Shown piece after piece: positions 1 through 57,533 of a DNA stretch of 64,000 nt. The position numbers and the translations under genes were made by a program. The stretch lies in assembly GCF_051903065.1 (NCBI RefSeq), contig NZ_CP178438.1. One strand, written 5' to 3'. The notes under the pieces are model-generated. The model searched no databases. It was not told the origin of the DNA and saw only the letters and a list, made by a program, of their open reading frames with translations. The stretch comes from Escherichia coli (GTDB lineage: Bacteria > Pseudomonadota > Gammaproteobacteria > Enterobacterales > Enterobacteriaceae). The first letter of the stretch is position 1, and each line of letters opens with the position of its first letter.

Positions 1-233
1 ATAACCTTAATGAATGTGACGATACATTCTGGAATGGCAGTATTCTCGGCTATTGGCTGAAGTATACCCATACCCGGAAAGAGTTACTCCTTATTTGCCG
101 TGTGGTTAGTCGCTTTACATCGGTAAGGGTAGGGATTCTACAGCACCGTGAAAAATCTCATAATTTTTATGAAATCACTGTACTCACTATGGGTAATGAT
201 AAATATCAATGATAGATAAAGTTATCTTATCGT

Positions 234-247
234 TTGATTTACATCAA
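234..247 (+). promoter_or_regulatory. FNR box (TTGAT-N4-ATCAA) of the narK promoter
   Basis: Perfect TTGATttacATCAA at 234-247, centred about 66 bp upstream of the narK ATG; TACCCAT/TACTCCT NarL-type heptamers lie further upstream around 65-90. Confidence 0.6.
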
Positions 248-306
248 ATTGCCTTTAGCTACAGACACTAAGGTGGCAGACATCGAAACGAGTATCAGAG
301 GTGTCT

Positions 307-1698
307 ATGAGTCACTCATCCGCCCCCGAAAGGGCTACTGGAGCTGTCATTACAGATTGGCGACCGGAAGATCCTGCGTTCTGGCAACAACGCGGTCAAC
401 GTATTGCCAGCCGCAACCTGTGGATTTCCGTTCCCTGTCTGCTGCTGGCGTTTTGCGTATGGATGTTGTTCAGCGCTGTTGCGGTGAACTTACCGAAAGT
501 CGGTTTTAATTTTACGACCGATCAGCTATTTATGTTGACTGCGCTGCCTTCGGTTTCTGGCGCGTTATTACGTGTTCCATACTCCTTTATGGTTCCTATC
601 TTCGGTGGTCGTCGCTGGACGGCGTTCAGCACCGGTATTCTGATTATTCCTTGCGTCTGGCTGGGGTTTGCCGTGCAGGATACCTCCACGCCTTATAGCG
701 TCTTCATCATCATCTCTCTGCTGTGCGGCTTTGCTGGCGCGAACTTCGCTTCCAGTATGGCAAACATCAGCTTCTTCTTTCCGAAACAGAAGCAGGGTGG
801 CGCGCTGGGTCTGAATGGTGGTCTGGGCAACATGGGCGTCAGCGTCATGCAGTTGGTTGCTCCGCTGGTGGTATCACTGTCGATTTTCGCAGTATTTGGT
901 AGCCAGGGCGTCAAACAGCCGGATGGGACTGAGCTGTATCTGGCGAATGCGTCCTGGATATGGGTGCCGTTCCTTGCCATCTTCACCATTGCGGCGTGGT
1001 TTGGCATGAACGATCTTGCTACCTCGAAAGCCTCCATCAAGGAGCAGTTGCCGGTACTCAAACGGGGTCATCTGTGGATTATGAGCCTGCTGTATCTGGC
1101 AACCTTCGGCTCCTTTATCGGCTTCTCCGCGGGCTTTGCGATGCTGTCAAAAACGCAGTTCCCGGATGTTCAGATTCTGCAATACGCTTTCTTCGGGCCG
1201 TTTATTGGTGCGCTGGCGCGTTCTGCAGGTGGTGCATTATCTGACCGTCTGGGCGGAACTCGTGTCACGCTGGTGAACTTTATTCTGATGGCGATTTTCA
1301 GCGGCCTGCTGTTCCTGACCTTACCGACTGACGGGCAGGGCGGAAGCTTCATGGCGTTCTTCGCGGTCTTCCTGGCGCTGTTCCTGACAGCTGGGCTGGG
1401 TAGTGGTTCCACTTTCCAGATGATTTCAGTGATCTTCCGTAAACTGACAATGGATCGCGTGAAAGCAGAAGGGGGGTCTGACGAACGTGCGATGCGTGAA
1501 GCGGCAACCGACACGGCGGCGGCGTTGGGTTTCATCTCTGCGATTGGCGCGATTGGTGGCTTCTTTATCCCGAAAGCGTTCGGTAGCTCGCTGGCATTAA
1601 CGGGTTCGCCAGTCGGCGCAATGAAAGTATTTTTGATTTTCTATATCGCCTGCGTAGTGATTACCTGGGCGGTATATGGTCGGCATTCTAAAAAATAA
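307..1698 (+). CDS. narK: Nitrate/nitrite antiporter NarK (MFS)
   Basis: 463-aa ORF from the ATG at 307 (track ORF 301..1698 starts two codons earlier at GTG); protein recognised as NarK (MSHSSAPERATGAVITDW...). Confidence 0.93.
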   Translation: MSHSSAPERATGAVITDWRPEDPAFWQQRGQRIASRNLWISVPCLLLAFCVWMLFSAVAVNLPKVGFNFTTDQLFMLTALPSVSGALLRVPYSFMVPIFGGRRWTAFSTGILIIPCVWLGFAVQDTSTPYSVFIIISLLCGFAGANFASSMANISFFFPKQKQGGALGLNGGLGNMGVSVMQLVAPLVVSLSIFAVFGSQGVKQPDGTELYLANASWIWVPFLAIFTIAAWFGMNDLATSKASIKEQLPVLKRGHLWIMSLLYLATFGSFIGFSAGFAMLSKTQFPDVQILQYAFFGPFIGALARSAGGALSDRLGGTRVTLVNFILMAIFSGLLFLTLPTDGQGGSFMAFFAVFLALFLTAGLGSGSTFQMISVIFRKLTMDRVKAEGGSDERAMREAATDTAAALGFISAIGAIGGFFIPKAFGSSLALTGSPVGAMKVFLIFYIACVVITWAVYGRHSKK

Positions 1699-1721
1699 AT
1701 CTTAATATTTGATTATCCTTT

Positions 1722-1747
1722 GCGCGGCATGATGTCGCGCTTTTTTT
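1722..1747 (+). terminator. narK rho-independent terminator
   Basis: GC-rich hairpin gcgcggcat..atgtcgcgc followed by T7 run, 24 bp after the narK stop. Confidence 0.6.
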
Positions 1748-1858
1748 ATACGTTATTTAGTTACAACATACTAATGTTATATAGCTTATTTCGCCGGATT
1801 TCAGGTGATGCTGCCAACTTACTGATTTAGTGTATGATGGTGTTTTTGAGGTGCTCCA

Positions 1859-2134
1859 GTGGCTTCTGTTTCTATCAGCTGTCCCTCCTGTTCAGCTACT
1901 GACGGGGTGGTGCGTAACGGCAAAAGCACCGCCGGACATCAGCGCTATCTCTGCTCTCACTGCCGTAAAACATGGCAACTGCAGTTCACTTACACCGCTT
2001 CTCAACCCGGTACGCACCAGAAAATCATTGATATGGCCATGAATGGCGTTGGATGCCGGGCAACAGCCCGCATTATGGGCGTTGGCCTCAACACGATTTT
2101 ACGTCACTTAAAAAACTCAGGCCGCAGTCGGTAA
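1859..2134 (+). CDS. insA: IS1 InsA (transposition regulator, N-terminal part of InsAB' transposase)
   Basis: 91-aa [26 protein letters not shown]... recognised as IS1 InsA; A6C slippery motif for the -1 frameshift at 2110-2116. Confidence 0.93.
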
Positions 2135-2556
2135 CCTCGCGCATACAGCCGGGCAGTGACGTCATCGTCTGCGCGGAAATGGACGAACAGTGGGGCTATG
2201 TCGGGGCTAAATCGCGCCAGCGCTGGCTGTTTTACGCGTATGACAGGCTCCGGAAGACGGTTGTTGCGCACGTATTCGGTGAACGCACTATGGCGACGCT
2301 GGGGCGTCTTATGAGCCTGCTGTCACCCTTTGACGTGGTGATATGGATGACGGATGGCTGGCCGCTGTATGAATCCCGCCTGAAGGGAAAGCTGCACGTA
2401 ATCAGCAAGCGATATACGCAGCGAATTGAGCGGCATAACCTGAATCTGAGGCAGCACCTGGCACGGCTGGGACGGAAGTCGCTGTCGTTCTCAAAATCGG
2501 TGGAGCTGCATGACAAAGTCATCGGGCATTATCTGAACATAAAACACTATCAATAA
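2053..2556 (+). CDS. insB: IS1 InsB (transposase C-terminal part)
   Basis: 167-aa ORF in the -1 frame relative to insA, overlapping its 3' end; recognised as IS1 InsB. Confidence 0.9.
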
Positions 2557-2598
2557 GTTGGAGTCATTACCGGATTTCATTAAGAGCCATTAATATGT

Positions 2599-2628
2599 TA
2601 CCCATGGGGAATACTCCTTAATACCCAT
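2599..2628 (+). promoter_or_regulatory. NarL heptamer cluster upstream of narG (about -200 region)
   Basis: TACCCAT (2599-2605), TACTCCT (2613-2619), TACCCAT (2622-2628) match the NarL TACYYMT heptamer; position roughly 180-210 bp upstream of the predicted narG start site. Confidence 0.55.
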
Positions 2629-2761
2629 TTGCATAAAAATCTTAATAGTTTAAATAGCTACAGGTATAAAACGTCTTAATTTACAGCATGTTATGCTGTA
2701 ACTGTTAATTATCCTAAAGGGGTATCTTAGGAATTTACTTTATTTTTCATCCCCATCACTC

Positions 2762-2775
2762 TTGATCGTTATCAA
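2762..2775 (+). promoter_or_regulatory. FNR box of the narG promoter
   Basis: TTGATcgttATCAA at 2762-2775, about 92 bp upstream of the narG ATG, consistent with a class II FNR site at -41.5. Confidence 0.65.
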
Positions 2776-2866
2776 TTCCCACGCTGTTTCAGAGCGTTAC
2801 CTTGCCCTTAAACATTAGCAATGTCGATTTATCAGAGGGCCGACAGGCTCCCACAGGAGAAAACCG

Positions 2867-5800
2867 ATGAGTAAATTCCTGGACCGGTTTCGCTACTTCA
2901 AACAGAAGGGTGAAACCTTTGCCGATGGGCATGGCCAGCTTCTCAATACCAACCGTGACTGGGAGGATGGATATCGCCAGCGTTGGCAGCATGACAAAAT
3001 CGTCCGCTCTACCCACGGGGTAAACTGCACCGGCTCCTGCAGCTGGAAAATCTACGTCAAAAACGGTCTGGTCACCTGGGAAACCCAGCAGACTGACTAT
3101 CCGCGTACCCGTCCGGATCTGCCAAACCATGAACCTCGCGGCTGCCCGCGCGGTGCCAGCTACTCCTGGTATCTTTACAGTGCCAACCGCCTGAAATACC
3201 CGATGATGCGCAAACGCCTGATGAAAATGTGGCGTGAAGCGAAGGCGCTGCATAGCGATCCGGTTGAGGCATGGGCTTCTATCATTGAAGACGCCGATAA
3301 AGCGAAAAGCTTTAAGCAGGCGCGTGGACGCGGTGGTTTTGTTCGTTCTTCCTGGCAGGAGGTGAACGAACTGATCGCCGCATCTAACGTTTACACCATC
3401 AAAAACTACGGCCCGGACCGTGTTGCTGGTTTCTCGCCAATTCCGGCAATGTCGATGGTTTCTTACGCATCGGGTGCACGCTATCTCTCGCTGATTGGCG
3501 GTACTTGCTTAAGCTTCTACGACTGGTACTGCGACCTGCCTCCTGCGTCTCCGCAAACCTGGGGCGAGCAAACTGACGTACCGGAATCTGCTGACTGGTA
3601 CAACTCCAGCTACATCATCGCCTGGGGTTCAAACGTGCCGCAGACGCGTACCCCGGATGCTCACTTCTTTACTGAAGTGCGTTACAAAGGGACCAAAACT
3701 GTTGCCGTCACGCCGGACTACGCTGAAATCGCCAAACTGTGCGATCTGTGGCTGGCACCGAAACAGGGCACCGATGCGGCAATGGCGCTGGCAATGGGCC
3801 ACGTAATGCTGCGTGAATTCCACCTCGATAACCCAAGCCAGTATTTCACCGACTATGTGCGTCGCTACACCGACATGCCGATGCTGGTGATGCTGGAAGA
3901 ACGCGACGGTTACTACGCTGCGGGTCGTATGCTGCGCGCTGCTGATCTGGTGGATGCGCTGGGTCAGGAAAACAATCCGGAATGGAAAACTGTCGCCTTT
4001 AATACCAATGGCGAAATGGTTGCGCCGAACGGTTCTATTGGCTTCCGCTGGGGCGAGAAGGGCAAATGGAATCTTGAGCAGCGCGACGGCAAAACTGGCG
4101 AAGAAACCGAGCTGCAACTGAGCCTGCTGGGTAGCCAGGATGAGATCGCTGAGGTGGGCTTCCCGTACTTTGGTGGCGACGGCACGGAACACTTCAACAA
4201 AGTGGAACTGGAAAACGTGCTCCTGCACAAGCTGCCGGTGAAACGCCTGCAACTGGCTGACGGCAGCACCGCTCTGGTGACCACCGTTTACGATCTGACG
4301 CTGGCAAACTACGGTCTGGAACGTGGCCTGAACGACGTTAACTGTGCAACCAGCTATGACGATGTGAAAGCTTATACCCCGGCCTGGGCCGAGCAGATTA
4401 CCGGCGTTTCTCGCAGCCAGATTATTCGCATCGCCCGTGAATTTGCCGATAACGCTGATAAAACGCACGGTCGTTCGATGATTATCGTCGGTGCGGGGCT
4501 GAACCACTGGTATCACCTCGATATGAACTATCGTGGTCTGATCAACATGCTGATTTTCTGCGGCTGTGTCGGTCAGAGCGGGGGCGGCTGGGCGCACTAT
4601 GTAGGTCAGGAAAAACTGCGTCCGCAAACCGGCTGGCAGCCGCTGGCGTTTGCCCTTGACTGGCAGCGTCCGGCGCGTCACATGAACAGCACTTCTTATT
4701 TCTATAACCACTCCAGCCAGTGGCGTTATGAAACCGTCACGGCGGAAGAGTTGTTGTCACCGATGGCGGATAAATCCCGTTATACCGGACACCTGATCGA
4801 CTTTAACGTCCGTGCGGAACGCATGGGCTGGCTGCCGTCTGCACCGCAGTTAGGCACTAACCCGCTGACTATCGCTGGCGAAGCGGAAAAAGCCGGGATG
4901 AATCCGGTGGACTATACGGTGAAATCCCTGAAAGAGGGTTCCATCCGTTTTGCGGCAGAACAACCAGAAAACGGTAAAAACCACCCGCGCAACCTGTTCA
5001 TCTGGCGTTCTAACCTGCTCGGTTCTTCCGGTAAAGGTCATGAGTTTATGCTCAAGTACCTGCTGGGGACGGAGCACGGTATCCAGGGTAAAGATCTGGG
5101 GCAGCAGGGCGGCGTGAAGCCGGAAGAAGTGGACTGGCAGGACAATGGTCTGGAAGGCAAGCTGGATCTGGTGGTTACGCTGGACTTCCGTCTGTCGAGC
5201 ACCTGTCTCTATTCCGACATCATTTTGCCGACGGCGACCTGGTACGAAAAAGACGACATGAATACATCGGATATGCATCCGTTTATTCACCCGCTGTCTG
5301 CGGCGGTCGATCCGGCCTGGGAAGCGAAAAGCGACTGGGAAATCTACAAAGCCATCGCGAAGAAATTCTCCGAAGTGTGCGTCGGCCATCTGGGTAAAGA
5401 AACCGACATCGTCACGCTGCCTATCCAGCACGACTCTGCCGCTGAACTGGCGCAGCCGCTGGATGTGAAAGATTGGAAAAAAGGCGAATGCGACCTGATC
5501 CCAGGCAAAACTGCACCGCACATTATGGTCGTAGAGCGCGATTATCCAGCGACTTACGAACGCTTTACCTCTATCGGCCCGCTGATGGAGAAAATCGGTA
5601 ATGGCGGTAAAGGGATTGCATGGAACACCCAGAGCGAGATGGATCTGCTGCGTAAGCTCAACTACACCAAAGCGGAAGGTCCGGCGAAAGGCCAGCCGAT
5701 GCTGAACACCGCAATTGATGCGGCAGAGATGATCCTGACGCTGGCACCGGAAACCAACGGTCAGGTAGCCGTGAAAGCCTGGGCTGCCCTGAGCGAGTTT

Positions 5801-6610
5801 ACCGGTCGTGACCATACGCATCTGGCGCTGAATAAAGAAGACGAGAAGATCCGCTTCCGCGATATTCAGGCACAGCCGCGCAAAATTATCTCCAGCCCGA
5901 CCTGGTCTGGTCTGGAAGATGAACACGTTTCTTACAACGCCGGTTACACCAACGTTCACGAGCTGATCCCATGGCGTACGCTCTCTGGTCGTCAGCAACT
6001 GTATCAGGATCACCAGTGGATGCGTGATTTCGGTGAAAGCCTGCTGGTTTATCGTCCGCCGATCGACACCCGTTCGGTGAAAGAAGTGATAGGCCAGAAA
6101 TCCAACGGCAACCCGGAAAAAGCGCTCAACTTCCTGACGCCGCACCAGAAGTGGGGTATCCACTCCACCTACAGCGACAACCTGCTGATGCTGACTTTAG
6201 GTCGCGGTGGTCCGGTGGTCTGGTTGAGTGAAGCCGATGCCAAAGAGCTGGGTATCGCCGATAACGACTGGATTGAAGTCTTCAACAGCAACGGCGCTCT
6301 GACTGCCCGTGCGGTTGTCAGCCAGCGTGTTCCGGCAGGGATGACCATGATGTACCACGCGCAGGAACGTATCGTTAACCTGCCTGGTTCGGAAATTACC
6401 CAACAGCGTGGTGGTATCCATAACTCGGTCACCCGTATCACGCCGAAACCGACGCATATGATCGGCGGCTATGCCCATCTGGCATACGGCTTTAACTACT
6501 ACGGCACCGTAGGTTCTAACCGCGATGAGTTTGTTGTAGTGCGTAAGATGAAGAACATTGACTGGTTAGATGGCGAAGGCAATGACCAGGTACAGGAGAG
6601 CGTAAAATGA
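2867..6610 (+). CDS. narG: Respiratory nitrate reductase A, alpha (molybdopterin) subunit
   Basis: 1247-aa ORF recognised as NarG; first gene of the narGHJI block with overlapping stop/start junctions. Confidence 0.96.
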   Translation: MSKFLDRFRYFKQKGETFADGHGQLLNTNRDWEDGYRQRWQHDKIVRSTHGVNCTGSCSWKIYVKNGLVTWETQQTDYPRTRPDLPNHEPRGCPRGASYSWYLYSANRLKYPMMRKRLMKMWREAKALHSDPVEAWASIIEDADKAKSFKQARGRGGFVRSSWQEVNELIAASNVYTIKNYGPDRVAGFSPIPAMSMVSYASGARYLSLIGGTCLSFYDWYCDLPPASPQTWGEQTDVPESADWYNSSYIIAWGSNVPQTRTPDAHFFTEVRYKGTKTVAVTPDYAEIAKLCDLWLAPKQGTDAAMALAMGHVMLREFHLDNPSQYFTDYVRRYTDMPMLVMLEERDGYYAAGRMLRAADLVDALGQENNPEWKTVAFNTNGEMVAPNGSIGFRWGEKGKWNLEQRDGKTGEETELQLSLLGSQDEIAEVGFPYFGGDGTEHFNKVELENVLLHKLPVKRLQLADGSTALVTTVYDLTLANYGLERGLNDVNCATSYDDVKAYTPAWAEQITGVSRSQIIRIAREFADNADKTHGRSMIIVGAGLNHWYHLDMNYRGLINMLIFCGCVGQSGGGWAHYVGQEKLRPQTGWQPLAFALDWQRPARHMNSTSYFYNHSSQWRYETVTAEELLSPMADKSRYTGHLIDFNVRAERMGWLPSAPQLGTNPLTIAGEAEKAGMNPVDYTVKSLKEGSIRFAAEQPENGKNHPRNLFIWRSNLLGSSGKGHEFMLKYLLGTEHGIQGKDLGQQGGVKPEEVDWQDNGLEGKLDLVVTLDFRLSSTCLYSDIILPTATWYEKDDMNTSDMHPFIHPLSAAVDPAWEAKSDWEIYKAIAKKFSEVCVGHLGKETDIVTLPIQHDSAAELAQPLDVKDWKKGECDLIPGKTAPHIMVVERDYPATYERFTSIGPLMEKIGNGGKGIAWNTQSEMDLLRKLNYTKAEGPAKGQPMLNTAIDAAEMILTLAPETNGQVAVKAWAALSEFTGRDHTHLALNKEDEKIRFRDIQAQPRKIISSPTWSGLEDEHVSYNAGYTNVHELIPWRTLSGRQQLYQDHQWMRDFGESLLVYRPPIDTRSVKEVIGQKSNGNPEKALNFLTPHQKWGIHSTYSDNLLMLTLGRGGPVVWLSEADAKELGIADNDWIEVFNSNGALTARAVVSQRVPAGMTMMYHAQERIVNLPGSEITQQRGGIHNSVTRITPKPTHMIGGYAHLAYGFNYYGTVGSNRDEFVVVRKMKNIDWLDGEGNDQVQESVK

Positions 6611-10245: not shown

Positions 10246-11088
10246 TTAAAGAATAATCGTCCGATTACCGTAAACAAAGACGCGCTGCGCCAGTACTTTG
10301 TAGAGCGCGCGACTTAAGACGTTTTTCTCGACGTCACGACCTGCACGCATCATATCTTCAGCTGTGTAGGTATGATCGACATGAATAACGTCCTGCATGA
10401 TGATTGGGCCTTCGTCCAGATTGTCATTAACATAGTGAGCTGTTGCGCCAATAATCTTCACGCCACGTTCATAGGCCTGGTGATAAGGACGTGCGCCGAT
10501 AAACGCTGGCAGGAAGGAATGGTGAATATTGATGATCTTATTCGGGAAGCGTGACACAAATTCCGGTGTTAATACCCGCATATACTTCGCCAGCACCACG
10601 TAGTCAGGTTGATAAGCATCAATGGCATCCGCCATCTTTTGATCGTGCTCGTTGCGGCTTAACCCTTCATGGCTTACCAGCTCAAACGGTATATCAAAAC
10701 GCTCAACCAGAGAACGTAAAGTATCGTGGTTACCAATCACTGCCGCGATTTCGACATCCAGGCCGCCGTAATTGGCTTTCATCAACAAATCGCCAAGGCA
10801 ATGCGCTTCTTTAGTGACCAGAATCACTATCCGGCGACGACCGGCAGGATTCAGCTCACGCACGGAGCCTTCTGGCAATGCGCTATCGAGATCCGCCAGC
10901 AGGGTGGAATCATTAAAAATCCCTTCCAGTTCCGTGCGCATAAAAAAGCGCCCGGTACGGTGATCAACAAATTCATTGTTCTGTACGATATTTAACTCGT
11001 GCTTGTAGCAAATATTGGTAATACGTGCGATCAGACCTTTTTGGTCCGGACAAATAGTACGCAGAACTTTACGTTGGAGTGAATGCAT
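10246..11088 (-). CDS. purU: Formyltetrahydrofolate deformylase
   Basis: 280-aa ORF recognised as PurU (ACT domain plus formyltransferase domain). Confidence 0.93.
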   Translation of the reverse strand: MHSLQRKVLRTICPDQKGLIARITNICYKHELNIVQNNEFVDHRTGRFFMRTELEGIFNDSTLLADLDSALPEGSVRELNPAGRRRIVILVTKEAHCLGDLLMKANYGGLDVEIAAVIGNHDTLRSLVERFDIPFELVSHEGLSRNEHDQKMADAIDAYQPDYVVLAKYMRVLTPEFVSRFPNKIINIHHSFLPAFIGARPYHQAYERGVKIIGATAHYVNDNLDEGPIIMQDVIHVDHTYTAEDMMRAGRDVEKNVLSRALYKVLAQRVFVYGNRTIIL

Positions 11089-16870: not shown

Positions 16871-18296
16871 TAATGCCGATCAGTTAAGGATCAGTTGACC
16901 GATCCAGTGGCTGTGTAAGAATCCGGAAACGCTCACTCGTTTCCGGATTTTTTTATGCACATTGGACAGGCTCTTGATCTGGTATCCCGTTACGATTCTC
17001 TGCGTAACCCACTGACTTCTCTGGGGGATTACCTCGACCCCGAACTCATCTCTCGTTGCCTTGCCGAATCAGGTACTGTAACGCTACGCAAGCGCCGTCT
17101 TCCCCTCGAAATGATGGTCTGGTGTATTGTTGGCATGGCGCTTGAGCGTAAAGAACCTCTTCACCAGATTGTGAATCGCCTGGACATCATGCTGCCGGGC
17201 AATCGCCCCTTCGTTGCCCCCAGTGCTGTTATTCAGGCCCGCCAGCGCCTGGGAAGTGAGGCTGTCCGCCGCGTGTTCACGAAAACAGCGCAGCTCTGGC
17301 ATAACGCCACGCCGCATCCGCACTGGTGCGGCCTGACCCTGCTGGCCATCGATGGTGTGTTCTGGCGCACACCGGATACACCAGAGAACGATGCAGCCTT
17401 CCCTCGCCAGACACATGCCGGGACCCCGGCGCTCTACCCGCAGGTCAAAATGGTCTGCCAGATGGAACTGACCAGCCATCTGCTGACGGCTGCAGCCTTC
17501 GGCACGATGAAGAACAGCGAAAATGAGCTTGCTGAGCAACTTATAGAACAAACCGGCGATAACACTCTGACGTTAATGGATAAAGGTTATTACTCACTGG
17601 GATTGTTAAATGCCTGGAGCCTGGCGGGAGAACACCGCCACTGGATGATCCCTCTCAGAAAGGGAGCTCAATATGAAGAGATCAGAAAACTGGGTAAAGG
17701 CGATCATCTGGTGAAGCTGAAAACCAGCCCGCAGGCACGAAAAAAGTGGCCGGGACTGGGAAATGAGGTGACAGCCCGCCTGCTGACCGTGACGCGCAAA
17801 GGAAAAGTCTGCCATCTGCTGACGTCGATGACGGACGCCATGCGCTTCCCCGGAGGAGAAATGGCGGATCTGTACAGTCATCGCTGGGAAATCGAACTGG
17901 GATACAGGGAGATAAAACAGACGATGCAACTGAGCAGGCTGACGCTGAGAAGTAAAAAGCCTGAGCTTGTGGAGCAAGAGCTGTGGGGTGTCTTACTGGC
18001 TTATAATCTGGTGAGATATCAGATGATTAAAATGGCGGAACATCTGAAAGGTTACTGGCCAAATCAACTGAGCTTCTCAGAATCATGCGGAATGGTGATG
18101 AGAATGCTGATGACATTGCAGGGCGCTTCACCGGGACGTATACCGGAGCTGATGCGCGATCTTGCAAGTATGGGACAACTTGTGAAATTACCGACAAGAA
18201 GGGAAAGGGCCTTCCCGAGAGTGGTAAAGGAGAGGCCCTGGAAATACCCCACAGCCCCGAAAAAGAGCCAGTCAGTTGCTTAACTGACTGGCATTA
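16871..18296 (+). mobile_element. IS4 insertion sequence, complete 1426 bp
   Basis: Imperfect 18-bp terminal inverted repeats (TAATGCCGATCAGTTAAG... / ...CTTAACTGACTGGCATTA); single intact transposase ORF; flanked by 12-bp direct repeat CCCCAGAAGGGG (16859-16870 and 18297-18308). Confidence 0.92.
16955..18283 (+). CDS. IS4 transposase (DDE), apparently intact
   Basis: 442-aa [43 protein letters not shown]... recognised as IS4-family transposase; no internal stops. Confidence 0.9.
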
Positions 18297-46439: not shown

Positions 46440-48342
46440 ATGGCAGGGAAGTTTCGCTGCATTTTGCTGTTGATAGCAGGGCTGTTTGTATCATCTCTAA
46501 GTTATGCAGATAACACGGAGATCCCTTCTTATGAAGAAGGGATCTCGCTCTTTGATGTTGAAGCCACTCTGCAACCGGATGGGGTGCTCGACATCAAAGA
46601 GAACATTCATTTTCAGGCGCGAAATCAGCAGATTAAGCACGGATTTTATCGTGATTTACCACGACTATGGATGCAGCCTGATGGTGACGCGGCGCTGCTG
46701 AACTATCGCATTATTAGCGTCACCCGTGATGGTATTCCTGAACCCTGGCATCATGACTGGCATATCGGGTTAATGAGTATTGTCGTGGGCGATAAACAAC
46801 GTTTCTTGCCTCAAGGCGACTATCATTATCAAATTCATTATCAGGTTAAAAATGCTTTCCAGCGTGAGGGAGATTCAGATCTGTTAATCTGGAACGTGAC
46901 TGGTAACCACTGGCCGTTTGAAATCTATAAGACCCGATTTCCACTCAAGTTCCCTGATATCGCGGGTAATCCATTTAGCGAAATCGATCTCTTTACTGGA
47001 GAAGAGGGCGACACATATCGAAATGGCCGCATCCTTGAGGACGGAAGAATTGAATCCAGCGATCCGTTTTATCGTGAAGATTTCACGGTACTCTATACTC
47101 TACCGTTGGCCTCACTCGTTACTTAGCAATGCCCCGGCTCCGCAAACGACGAATATTTTCAGCCATCTTCTTTTACCCTCCACGTCATCGTTGTTAATTT
47201 GGTTTCCGTGTCTGTTCCTGGTTTGTGGATGGTTATATCTCTGGAAGCGCAGGCCGCAATTTACGCCGGTAGATGTGATTGAAACCGATGTCATTCCGCC
47301 AGATTACACGCCCGGCATGTTACGTCTCGATGCGAAGCTGGTTTACGACGATAAAGGTTTTTGTGCCGATATCGTAAATCTGATTGTGAAAGGAAAAATT
47401 CATCTGGAAGATCAGTCTGACAAGAACCAGCAAATCCTGATTCGTGTTAATGAAGGCGCGACCAGAAATAATGAGGTATTACTGCCCGCAGAGCAGTTAT
47501 TACTGGAAGCGTTATTTCGTAAAGGCGATAAGGTCGTTCTTACGGGGAGACGCAACAGAGTCTTACGCAGGGCATTTTTACGGATGCAGAAATTTTATCT
47601 GCCGCGTAAAAAGTCTTCGTTTTACCGGCCTGATACTTTTTTGCAATGGGGTGGACTGGCAATATTGGCGGTCATTCTTTACGGTAACCTGAGTCCTGTA
47701 GGCTGGGCAGGAATGAGTCTGGTGGGCGATATGTTTATTATGATCTGCTGGCTTCTTCCTTTTTTATTTTGTTCCCTTGAGCTTTTGTTTGCCCGCGATG
47801 ATGACAAGCCTTGCGTTAATCGTGTAATCATCACTTTGTTTTTACCGCTGATTTGTTCAGGCGTGGCCTTTTATTCTCTCTATATCAATGTCGGAGATGT
47901 ATTCTTTTACTGGTATATGCCAGCGGGTTATTTTAGCGCTGTTTTCCTGACCGGTTATCTCACTGGTATGGGGTATATTTTTCTGCCAAAGTTTACCCAA
48001 ACTGGGCAGCAACGTTATGCCCACGGTGAAGCTATCGTTAACTATCTTGCGCGTAAAGAGGCGGCAACACACAGTGGGCGGCGGCGGAAAGGGGAAACAC
48101 GGAAACTGGATTACGCGTTGCTAGGTTGGGCAGTCTCAGCAAACCTTGGAAGAGAATGGGTAGCACGTATCACCCCATCACTCACAGCGGCTGTTAGCGC
48201 CCCGGAAATTGCCCGTAGTGGCGTTTTGTTCTCATTACAGATGCACCTGAGTCTGGGGGCCAATACCAGTTTGTTGGGGCGAAGTTATTCCGGTGGTGGT
48301 GCTGGCGGCGGCGCGGGTGGCGGAGGCGGTGGTGGCTGGTAA
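46440..48342 (+). pseudogene. yciQ: DUF2207-type membrane protein YciQ, interrupted by an apparent +/-1 frameshift
   Basis: N-terminal 228 codons in frame 0 end at TAG 47124-47126; the remainder (to the Gly-rich C-terminus ...GGGAGGGAGGGGGGGW) continues in the +1 frame, which is open from 46900; the two frames overlap at 46900-47126. Confidence 0.6.
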
Positions 48343-57161: not shown

Positions 57162-57533
57162 TTATCATCATTCTTATTACCCATTTTTAATGAATTAAAG
57201 GGCTTTTAATACACCGCAGCAATAACAGGTTGAGTTATCTCAACACAAAGTAATAACCGTTAAGGGTGTAGCCTATGATCAACACAAATATGAAATATTG
57301 GTCCTGGATGGGTGCATTTTCTCTGTCGATTCTCTTCTGGGCCGAACTCCTCTGGATCATTACTCACTGATCCTTGACCCCGCTGCGGCGGGGTTGTCAT
57401 TTGCTTTGCCACAAGGTTTCTCCTCTTTTATCAATTTGGGTTGTTATCAAATCGTTACGCGATGTTTGTGTTATCTTTAATATTCACCCTGAAGAGAATC
57501 AGGGCTTCGCAACCCTGTCATTAAGGAGGAGCT

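Follow-up and report, generated by a model that had tools for sequence, protein, structure and literature searches.

A complete IS1 element lies just upstream of an intact narG control region in a rare clone of Escherichia coli

The stretch of DNA analysed here (the window) comprises 64,000 nucleotides of Escherichia coli sequence and includes, near its start, narK and narG. The coding sequence of narK, which specifies the nitrate/nitrite transporter, occupies positions 307-1698, and that of narG, which specifies the alpha subunit of nitrate reductase A, occupies positions 2867-6610 and is followed by narH. Both are on the plus strand, as are the stranded features of this locus described below unless noted otherwise. 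The assignments come from the list of open reading frames and RefSeq annotation, which for narK was that of the identical locus in strain ECNB21-M121, together with a Pfam match of narK to MFS_1. The narK-narG intergenic region is 1,168 bp long and contains a complete IS1.

The element is 768 bp long (1804-2571), belongs to the IS1A type, and has its transposase genes oriented toward narG. It was recognized by its inverted repeats, by comparison with IS1A of K-12, and by Pfam and RefSeq, where the identical locus of ECNB21-M121 is labelled as an IS1A family transposase with a programmed frameshift and given as a joined CDS. The imperfect terminal inverted repeats of ~23 bp, GGTGATGCTGCCAACTTACTGAT and GGTAATGACTCCAACTTATTGAT, are located at 1804-1826 (plus strand) and 2549-2571 (minus strand), and are the only two matches to such repeats in the 64-kb window, with none expected by chance. 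Between them, insA (1859-2134) and the insB' frame (2053-2556) are fused by a −1 frameshift at the A6C motif TTAAAAAAC, found at position 2108, into a unit spanning 1859-2556. The reading frames match the Pfam families Zn_ribbon_InsA, HTH_Tnp_IS1, and DDE_Tnp_IS1 with E-values from 1e-21 to 1e-78, and the whole element is identical to K-12 IS1A at 767 of 768 bases, the sole mismatch being at position 444. Its length and ends, the insA/insB' arrangement with its frameshift, and the target duplication and empty site described below are all those of an IS1 family member. With reading frames and ends intact, the copy is apparently transposition-competent.

Copies of the 8-bp sequence GGATTTCA flank the element at 1796-1803 on the left and at 2572-2579 (−238 to −231 of narG) on the right; counting the terminal C of IS1 extends the target-site duplication to 9 bp. 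Alignment with K-12, where the empty site reads ...CGCCGGATTTCATTAAGAGCC..., showed that the window adds the IS1 and one more GGATTTCA, with no bases missing. An empty site rebuilt from the window flanks (200 bp) was 100% identical to that of the IS-free strain SCU-316. Since the rebuilt site matches SCU-316 exactly and the K-12 alignment agrees, the event was a clean simple insertion without deletion. Of the 5,415 complete E. coli genomes with this locus, 5,408 have the same 200-bp empty site unbroken. The target DNA at the insertion has a G+C content of 28-37%, and IS1 prefers AT-rich targets.

The intergenic region also differs from that of K-12 by 123 bp in length. An IS1-mediated adjacent deletion was considered as the source of this difference and rejected: the difference is a 123-bp ERIC-like element that in K-12 directly follows the narK stop codon (in the narK 3'UTR, 2350-2521 of the retrieved K-12 locus), ~100 bp from IS1, and that is absent not only from the window (1699-1747) but also from the IS-free SCU-316 and from FDAARGOS_943. 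A long form of NarS, a small RNA derived from the narK 3'UTR, has been described in K-12 (PMC7038943); because the ERIC-like repeat is missing from the narK 3'UTR here, NarS of the window would be of the short, Salmonella-like form. The narK intrinsic terminator, which is also the NarS 3' end (1722-1747; terminator scan, folding energy of −13 kcal/mol, K-12 narS annotation, PMC7038943), is intact, with a stem at 1722-1740 followed by seven T residues, and ends 56 bp upstream of IS1. An Rfam search of window positions 1-3000 at gathering thresholds gave no match, and the identification of NarS relies on the K-12 annotation and on PMC7038943. The insertion has displaced this terminator from narG by 776 bp, in agreement with an initial sequence-only reading of the locus, which had put the displacement at nearly 800 bp.

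The narG transcription start site (+1) was placed at window position 2810 by mapping the primers narGup223 and narGDown (PMC9314961 supplement). The former anneals at CCATTAATATGTTACCC, starting at position 2587, and the latter ends at 2879; the interval 2587-2879 thus corresponds to narG223 (−223 to +70), which the literature treats as the full-length narG promoter, and is wholly preserved. The end of IS1 corresponds to −239, 16 bp beyond this fragment. A pattern search located the FNR box TTGATCGTTATCAA at 2762-2775, centred at −41.5. Exact matches to TTGAT-N4-ATCAA number three in the 64 kb, versus 0.11 expected; one of the others is the site expected at the narK promoter (234-247), and the remaining one, the palindrome TTGATAAGCATCAA, falls within the purU coding sequence (10609-10622). 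The upstream NarL heptamer cluster, the −195 region, is at 2599-2628 (−211 to −182) and consists of three heptamers of the form TACYYMT (TACCCAT at 2599-2605, TACTCCT at 2612-2618, and TACCCAT at 2622-2628). It is the only match to the three-heptamer pattern in the window (none expected) and is identical to its K-12 counterpart. The distance of 28 bp from IS1 to the heptamers given by the sequence-only reading is correct as the difference between coordinates 2571 and 2599, which leaves 27 bases in between.

For full induction, narG needs two NarL regions, at −89 and −195, as well as FNR and IHF (PMC4549865), which bears out that reading's premise of activation through far-upstream NarL and IHF. 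The fragment used for NarL footprinting, −236 to +155, holds both NarL regions (PMC4549865). A test promoter joined to the upstream segment of narG223 became massively nitrate-inducible, though vector DNA abuts position −223 (PMC9314961); these assays were done on plasmids in K-12, that is, in another context and with another promoter allele than those of the present chromosome. The published fragment boundaries and the primer mapping place every cis element known as necessary downstream of IS1, with the spacing kept.

From the heptamers to the narG ATG (2597-2866, 270 bp), the window matches the IS-free SCU-316 with 100% identity, and 419 records, O157:H7 included, are identical to it at 99% or more. 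Relative to K-12, the control region carries 8 natural substitutions, none of which affects the FNR box, the −195 heptamers, or the −89 region; the sequence from −108 to the narG ATG is identical to that of K-12, and the stretch from the heptamers to the promoter contains no indels. The FNR box and heptamers, previously described as intact, are indeed so, and the native DNA further upstream has, as also proposed, been replaced, IS1 occupying everything beyond −239.

Alignment with K-12, scanning, and folding revealed an allelic difference at 2681-2701 (−129 to −109), where the window has a perfect 9-bp palindrome, TTACAGCAT-GTT-ATGCTGTAA, in place of TTACAGTCT-GTT-ATGTGGTGG in K-12 (6 substitutions in 15 bp). 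About 419 records, including O157:H7, have the palindromic allele as a standing variant, and the IS-free SCU-316 shares it; judged by this distribution, it is a natural allele that IS1 did not cause. A search of species-representative genomes with a degenerate 30-mer gave no matches to the palindrome, even for E. coli, and was uninformative. The palindrome falls where IHF reportedly binds narG upstream DNA. The native narG IHF site, between the two NarL regions, reportedly lies at about −125; in 2540-2800 outside IS1, neither the window nor K-12 has a match to WATCAANNNNTTR at up to one mismatch, and the native site is therefore degenerate. An exact IHF consensus, TATCAATAAGTTG, was found by consensus search at 2548-2560 (−262 to −250 of narG), in the right inverted repeat of IS1. 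As this is one of six exact matches in the window, versus 3.3 expected, the match by itself carries little weight. The ends of IS1 are reportedly bound by IHF, and a candidate IHF site this close to the NarL heptamers, ~50 bp upstream, could change the local architecture of the DNA.

Among 5,426 complete E. coli genomes, the IS1/narG junction is present in three: ECNB21-M121, isolated from meat in China, and 23CRST027 and 23CRST031, both from human faeces in Ecuador. The window differs from ECNB21-M121 by 5 SNPs (mismatches) in 37.9 kb, and shows no mismatches to 23CRST027 over the first 16.9 kb. Going by these alignments, the window and the three junction genomes are essentially one rare clone, with a single insertion event. 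The near-identical ECNB21-M121 carries another IS1, between trpA and yciG, which the window lacks (at ~37889). This extra copy indicates ongoing movement of IS1 within the clone and fits recent activity, whichever copy was the mover. The window also carries an intact IS4 transposase gene between tdk and adhE (16955-18283); since the alignment of the window with 23CRST027 breaks at 16954, exactly at the start of the IS4 gene, this region differs among clone members. Elsewhere in the window, yciQ (DUF2207; 46440-48342) is split into the overlapping open reading frames 46440-47126 and 46918-48342, and the ECNB21-M121 annotation lists the gene as a frameshifted pseudogene, while positions 57202-57404 strongly match the enterobacterial small RNA STnc180 in Rfam (198 bits). 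A literature search combining IS1, narG, and narK returned no papers.

IS1 has entered the narK-narG intergenic region independently four times, in the window clone and in strains LR-24, MEC2025-PR, and FDAARGOS_943. In LR-24 (NZ_AP027494.1; retrieved locus 2383-3150), an IS1 with 7 differences is inserted in the same orientation as that of the window, 16 bp nearer to narG, with the duplication CCATTAATA corresponding to window positions 2587-2595 (−223 to −215); the narG223 fragment is left exactly intact. The MEC2025-PR copy (NZ_CM195848.1), 11 bp nearer to narG than that of the window, is in the opposite orientation, with the duplication AAGAGCCAT at the equivalent of 2582-2590 (−228 to −220). 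Both insertions are within 25 bp of that in the window, and all three stop short of the heptamers. In FDAARGOS_943 (NZ_CP065615.1; retrieved locus 2739-3506), the element is in the same orientation as in the window, the duplication CTAAAGGGG corresponds to 2714-2722 (−96 to −88), and IS1 comes between the −195 NarL/IHF module on one side and the −89 NarL region with the FNR site on the other; in this strain, nitrate is predicted no longer to induce narG normally. A query with the whole occupied locus, which ranks collinear insertions high, missed FDAARGOS_943; this strain came from the search with the control region. The 200-bp stretch is interrupted in 7 genomes, as compared with 0 and 1 for two 200-bp regulatory regions from the same window that served as controls (narX-narK and upstream of adhE, respectively), the 7 being genomes rather than independent events, of which 5 were traced to a strain.

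Transcription from IS1 toward narG was considered next to these data. A consensus promoter scan of 1650-2900 identified one promoter-like site only, CTGCCA-16-TATGAT at 1811-1838, in the left inverted repeat, which presumably corresponds to the known left-end promoter of the IS1 transposase. Transcription from the IS1 promoter is weak and subject to InsA repression, and the element is polar. The same scan of 1650-2900 predicted no σ70-like hybrid promoter at the right-end junction of IS1 with the narG upstream DNA. Read directly, the junction offers TTGGAG-17-TAAGAG and TTACCG-18-TAATAT, both poor and below the scan threshold; the outward −35-like TTGGAG belongs to the right repeat, and the good −10-like TAATAT is at 2591-2596. 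The scan is capable of detecting such promoters, since in MEC2025-PR (retrieved locus 4865-4893) it finds TTGGCA-17-TAATAT, a promoter-like hybrid whose TTGGCA belongs to the left end of IS1 and which faces narG from about −230. In FDAARGOS_943, the same scan found no hybrid promoter. Between the end of insB' (2556) and the narG promoter, no convincing terminator was detected; the sole hairpin, at 2681-2701 (−10.1 kcal/mol), is AT-rich, with 3 G-C pairs and a poor T-tail. Because IS1 faces narG and no convincing terminator follows insB', some read-through into narG is possible, and would take the form of low-level insAB' transcription.

The reading that we prefer, with a probability of roughly 0.7, is that ordinary IS1 transposition into a spacer has had little or no effect on narGHJI. 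On this reading, a complete IS1A-type element entered AT-rich, apparently functionless DNA that separates the narK terminator from the narG upstream activating region, by a transposition that gave rise to an 8- or 9-bp target duplication and no deletion. Neither the sequence nor the mutual spacing of the FNR site, the IHF region, and the two NarL regions has been altered by it, so that anaerobic and nitrate control of narGHJI would most likely be changed little or not at all, and the insertion would be a recent, probably near-neutral marker of one clone. The lack of a meaningful regulatory effect is favored by the position of IS1 outside the functional fragment, by the unchanged spacing, by the lack of a predicted junction promoter, and by the identity of the allele to that of IS-free strains. 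That the assembler misplaced IS1 has a negligible probability: copies of insertion sequences are generally hard to place, and nothing more speaks for it, while the identical junction, with a proper duplication, recurs in three complete genomes of Chinese and Ecuadorian origin whose sequencing was independent, so that the insertion is real.

An effect of IS1 on narGHJI expression is unlikely. It could arise from transcription passing through insAB' into narG, fed by low-level constitutive output of the left-end promoter or by leaky narK read-through, or from altered bending or nucleoid-protein occupancy beside the −195 region, caused by the IHF- and InsA-binding right end and 768 bp of GC-richer DNA. 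The orientation of IS1, the lack of a strong terminator past insB', and the exact IHF consensus at 2548-2560 are consistent with such an effect, as is the finding that transcription from flanking DNA does enter IS1 (PMC12428005). In ST131, IS1 elements in the same orientation altered the transcripts of afaA (up) and osmB (down); however, up-regulation there depended on a strong hybrid promoter, and ugd was unchanged (PMC8764528). No such promoter is predicted at the present junction, where the best candidates score below threshold, and IS1 leaves every cis element within the functional −223 to +70 fragment untouched; the weakness, InsA repression, and polarity of IS1 also argue against altered expression. 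The functional idea of the sequence-only reading, that read-through or outward transcription from IS1 alters narG expression, is, if anything, disfavored by these results.

We consider it improbable that IS1 lands recurrently just upstream of the narG NarL sites under positive selection, with the insertions serving as adaptive variants in the regulation of nitrate respiration. The four independent insertions, the 7 interrupted genomes as compared with the two controls, and the hybrid facing narG in MEC2025-PR would fit this explanation. Yet each insertion is limited to one strain or clone and has not spread, orientations and predicted outcomes differ (neutral, promoter-creating, and disruptive at −96), and IS1 is expected to land and be tolerated in an AT-rich, non-essential spacer. 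Two control regions, and a count of genomes rather than of events, do not demonstrate positive selection. We give equally little credence to a more specific version, in which the ~25-bp stretch upstream of the NarL sites and the −96 position are recurrent IS1 targets and the insertions act as selected switches of nitrate reductase A. In that case, weak constitutive read-through or one more IHF bend might come from the window copy, and a hybrid promoter independent of FNR and NarL from the MEC2025-PR copy, while in FDAARGOS_943 narG might be uncoupled from induction by nitrate. The simplest reading of the recurrent hits is that of an AT-rich spacer without function, in which IS1 lands readily and is tolerated.

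As it stands, the window insertion is a strain-specific IS1 in a well-understood locus, and is mainly useful as a clonal marker. If narG expression were altered, it would be a naturally occurring variant in the regulation of the principal respiratory nitrate reductase. The four insertions, with predicted effects that range from neutral to promoter-creating to architecture-breaking, would then form a natural series probing, in the chromosome, how much upstream DNA the NarL/IHF/FNR architecture needs.

The silent bgl operon is held inactive by H-NS, and IS1 and IS5 insertions are selected there as activating mutations. The present locus shares with bgl the insertion of an IS element into an AT-rich upstream regulatory region, but differs from it in that narG has a normally active promoter, activated by FNR and NarL, and shows no sign of relief from silencing. 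In the ST131 cases of afaA, osmB, and ugd (PMC8764528), IS1 is likewise upstream of the operon and in the same orientation, and the effect depends on whether an outward −35 element meets a −10 element. In those cases the insertion is beside the −10 element, whereas the window IS1 is 239 bp from the start site and no hybrid promoter is predicted; the MEC2025-PR insertion, unlike that of the window, resembles the afaA case. The window copy is like IS1A of K-12 in its length, 23-bp repeats, insA/insB' genes, A6C site, 8- or 9-bp duplication, and AT-rich target, and differs from it in one base (position 444) and in location, since K-12 has no IS1 between narK and narG. The narGHJI control region has the same FNR box, three −195 heptamers, −89 region, and spacing as that of K-12, from which it differs by the 8 substitutions and, upstream of −239, by the replacement of the narK 3' flank with IS1. 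Both IS1A and the FNR/NarL/IHF control region of narG are textbook elements; the location alone is new, and it is already recorded in RefSeq annotation.
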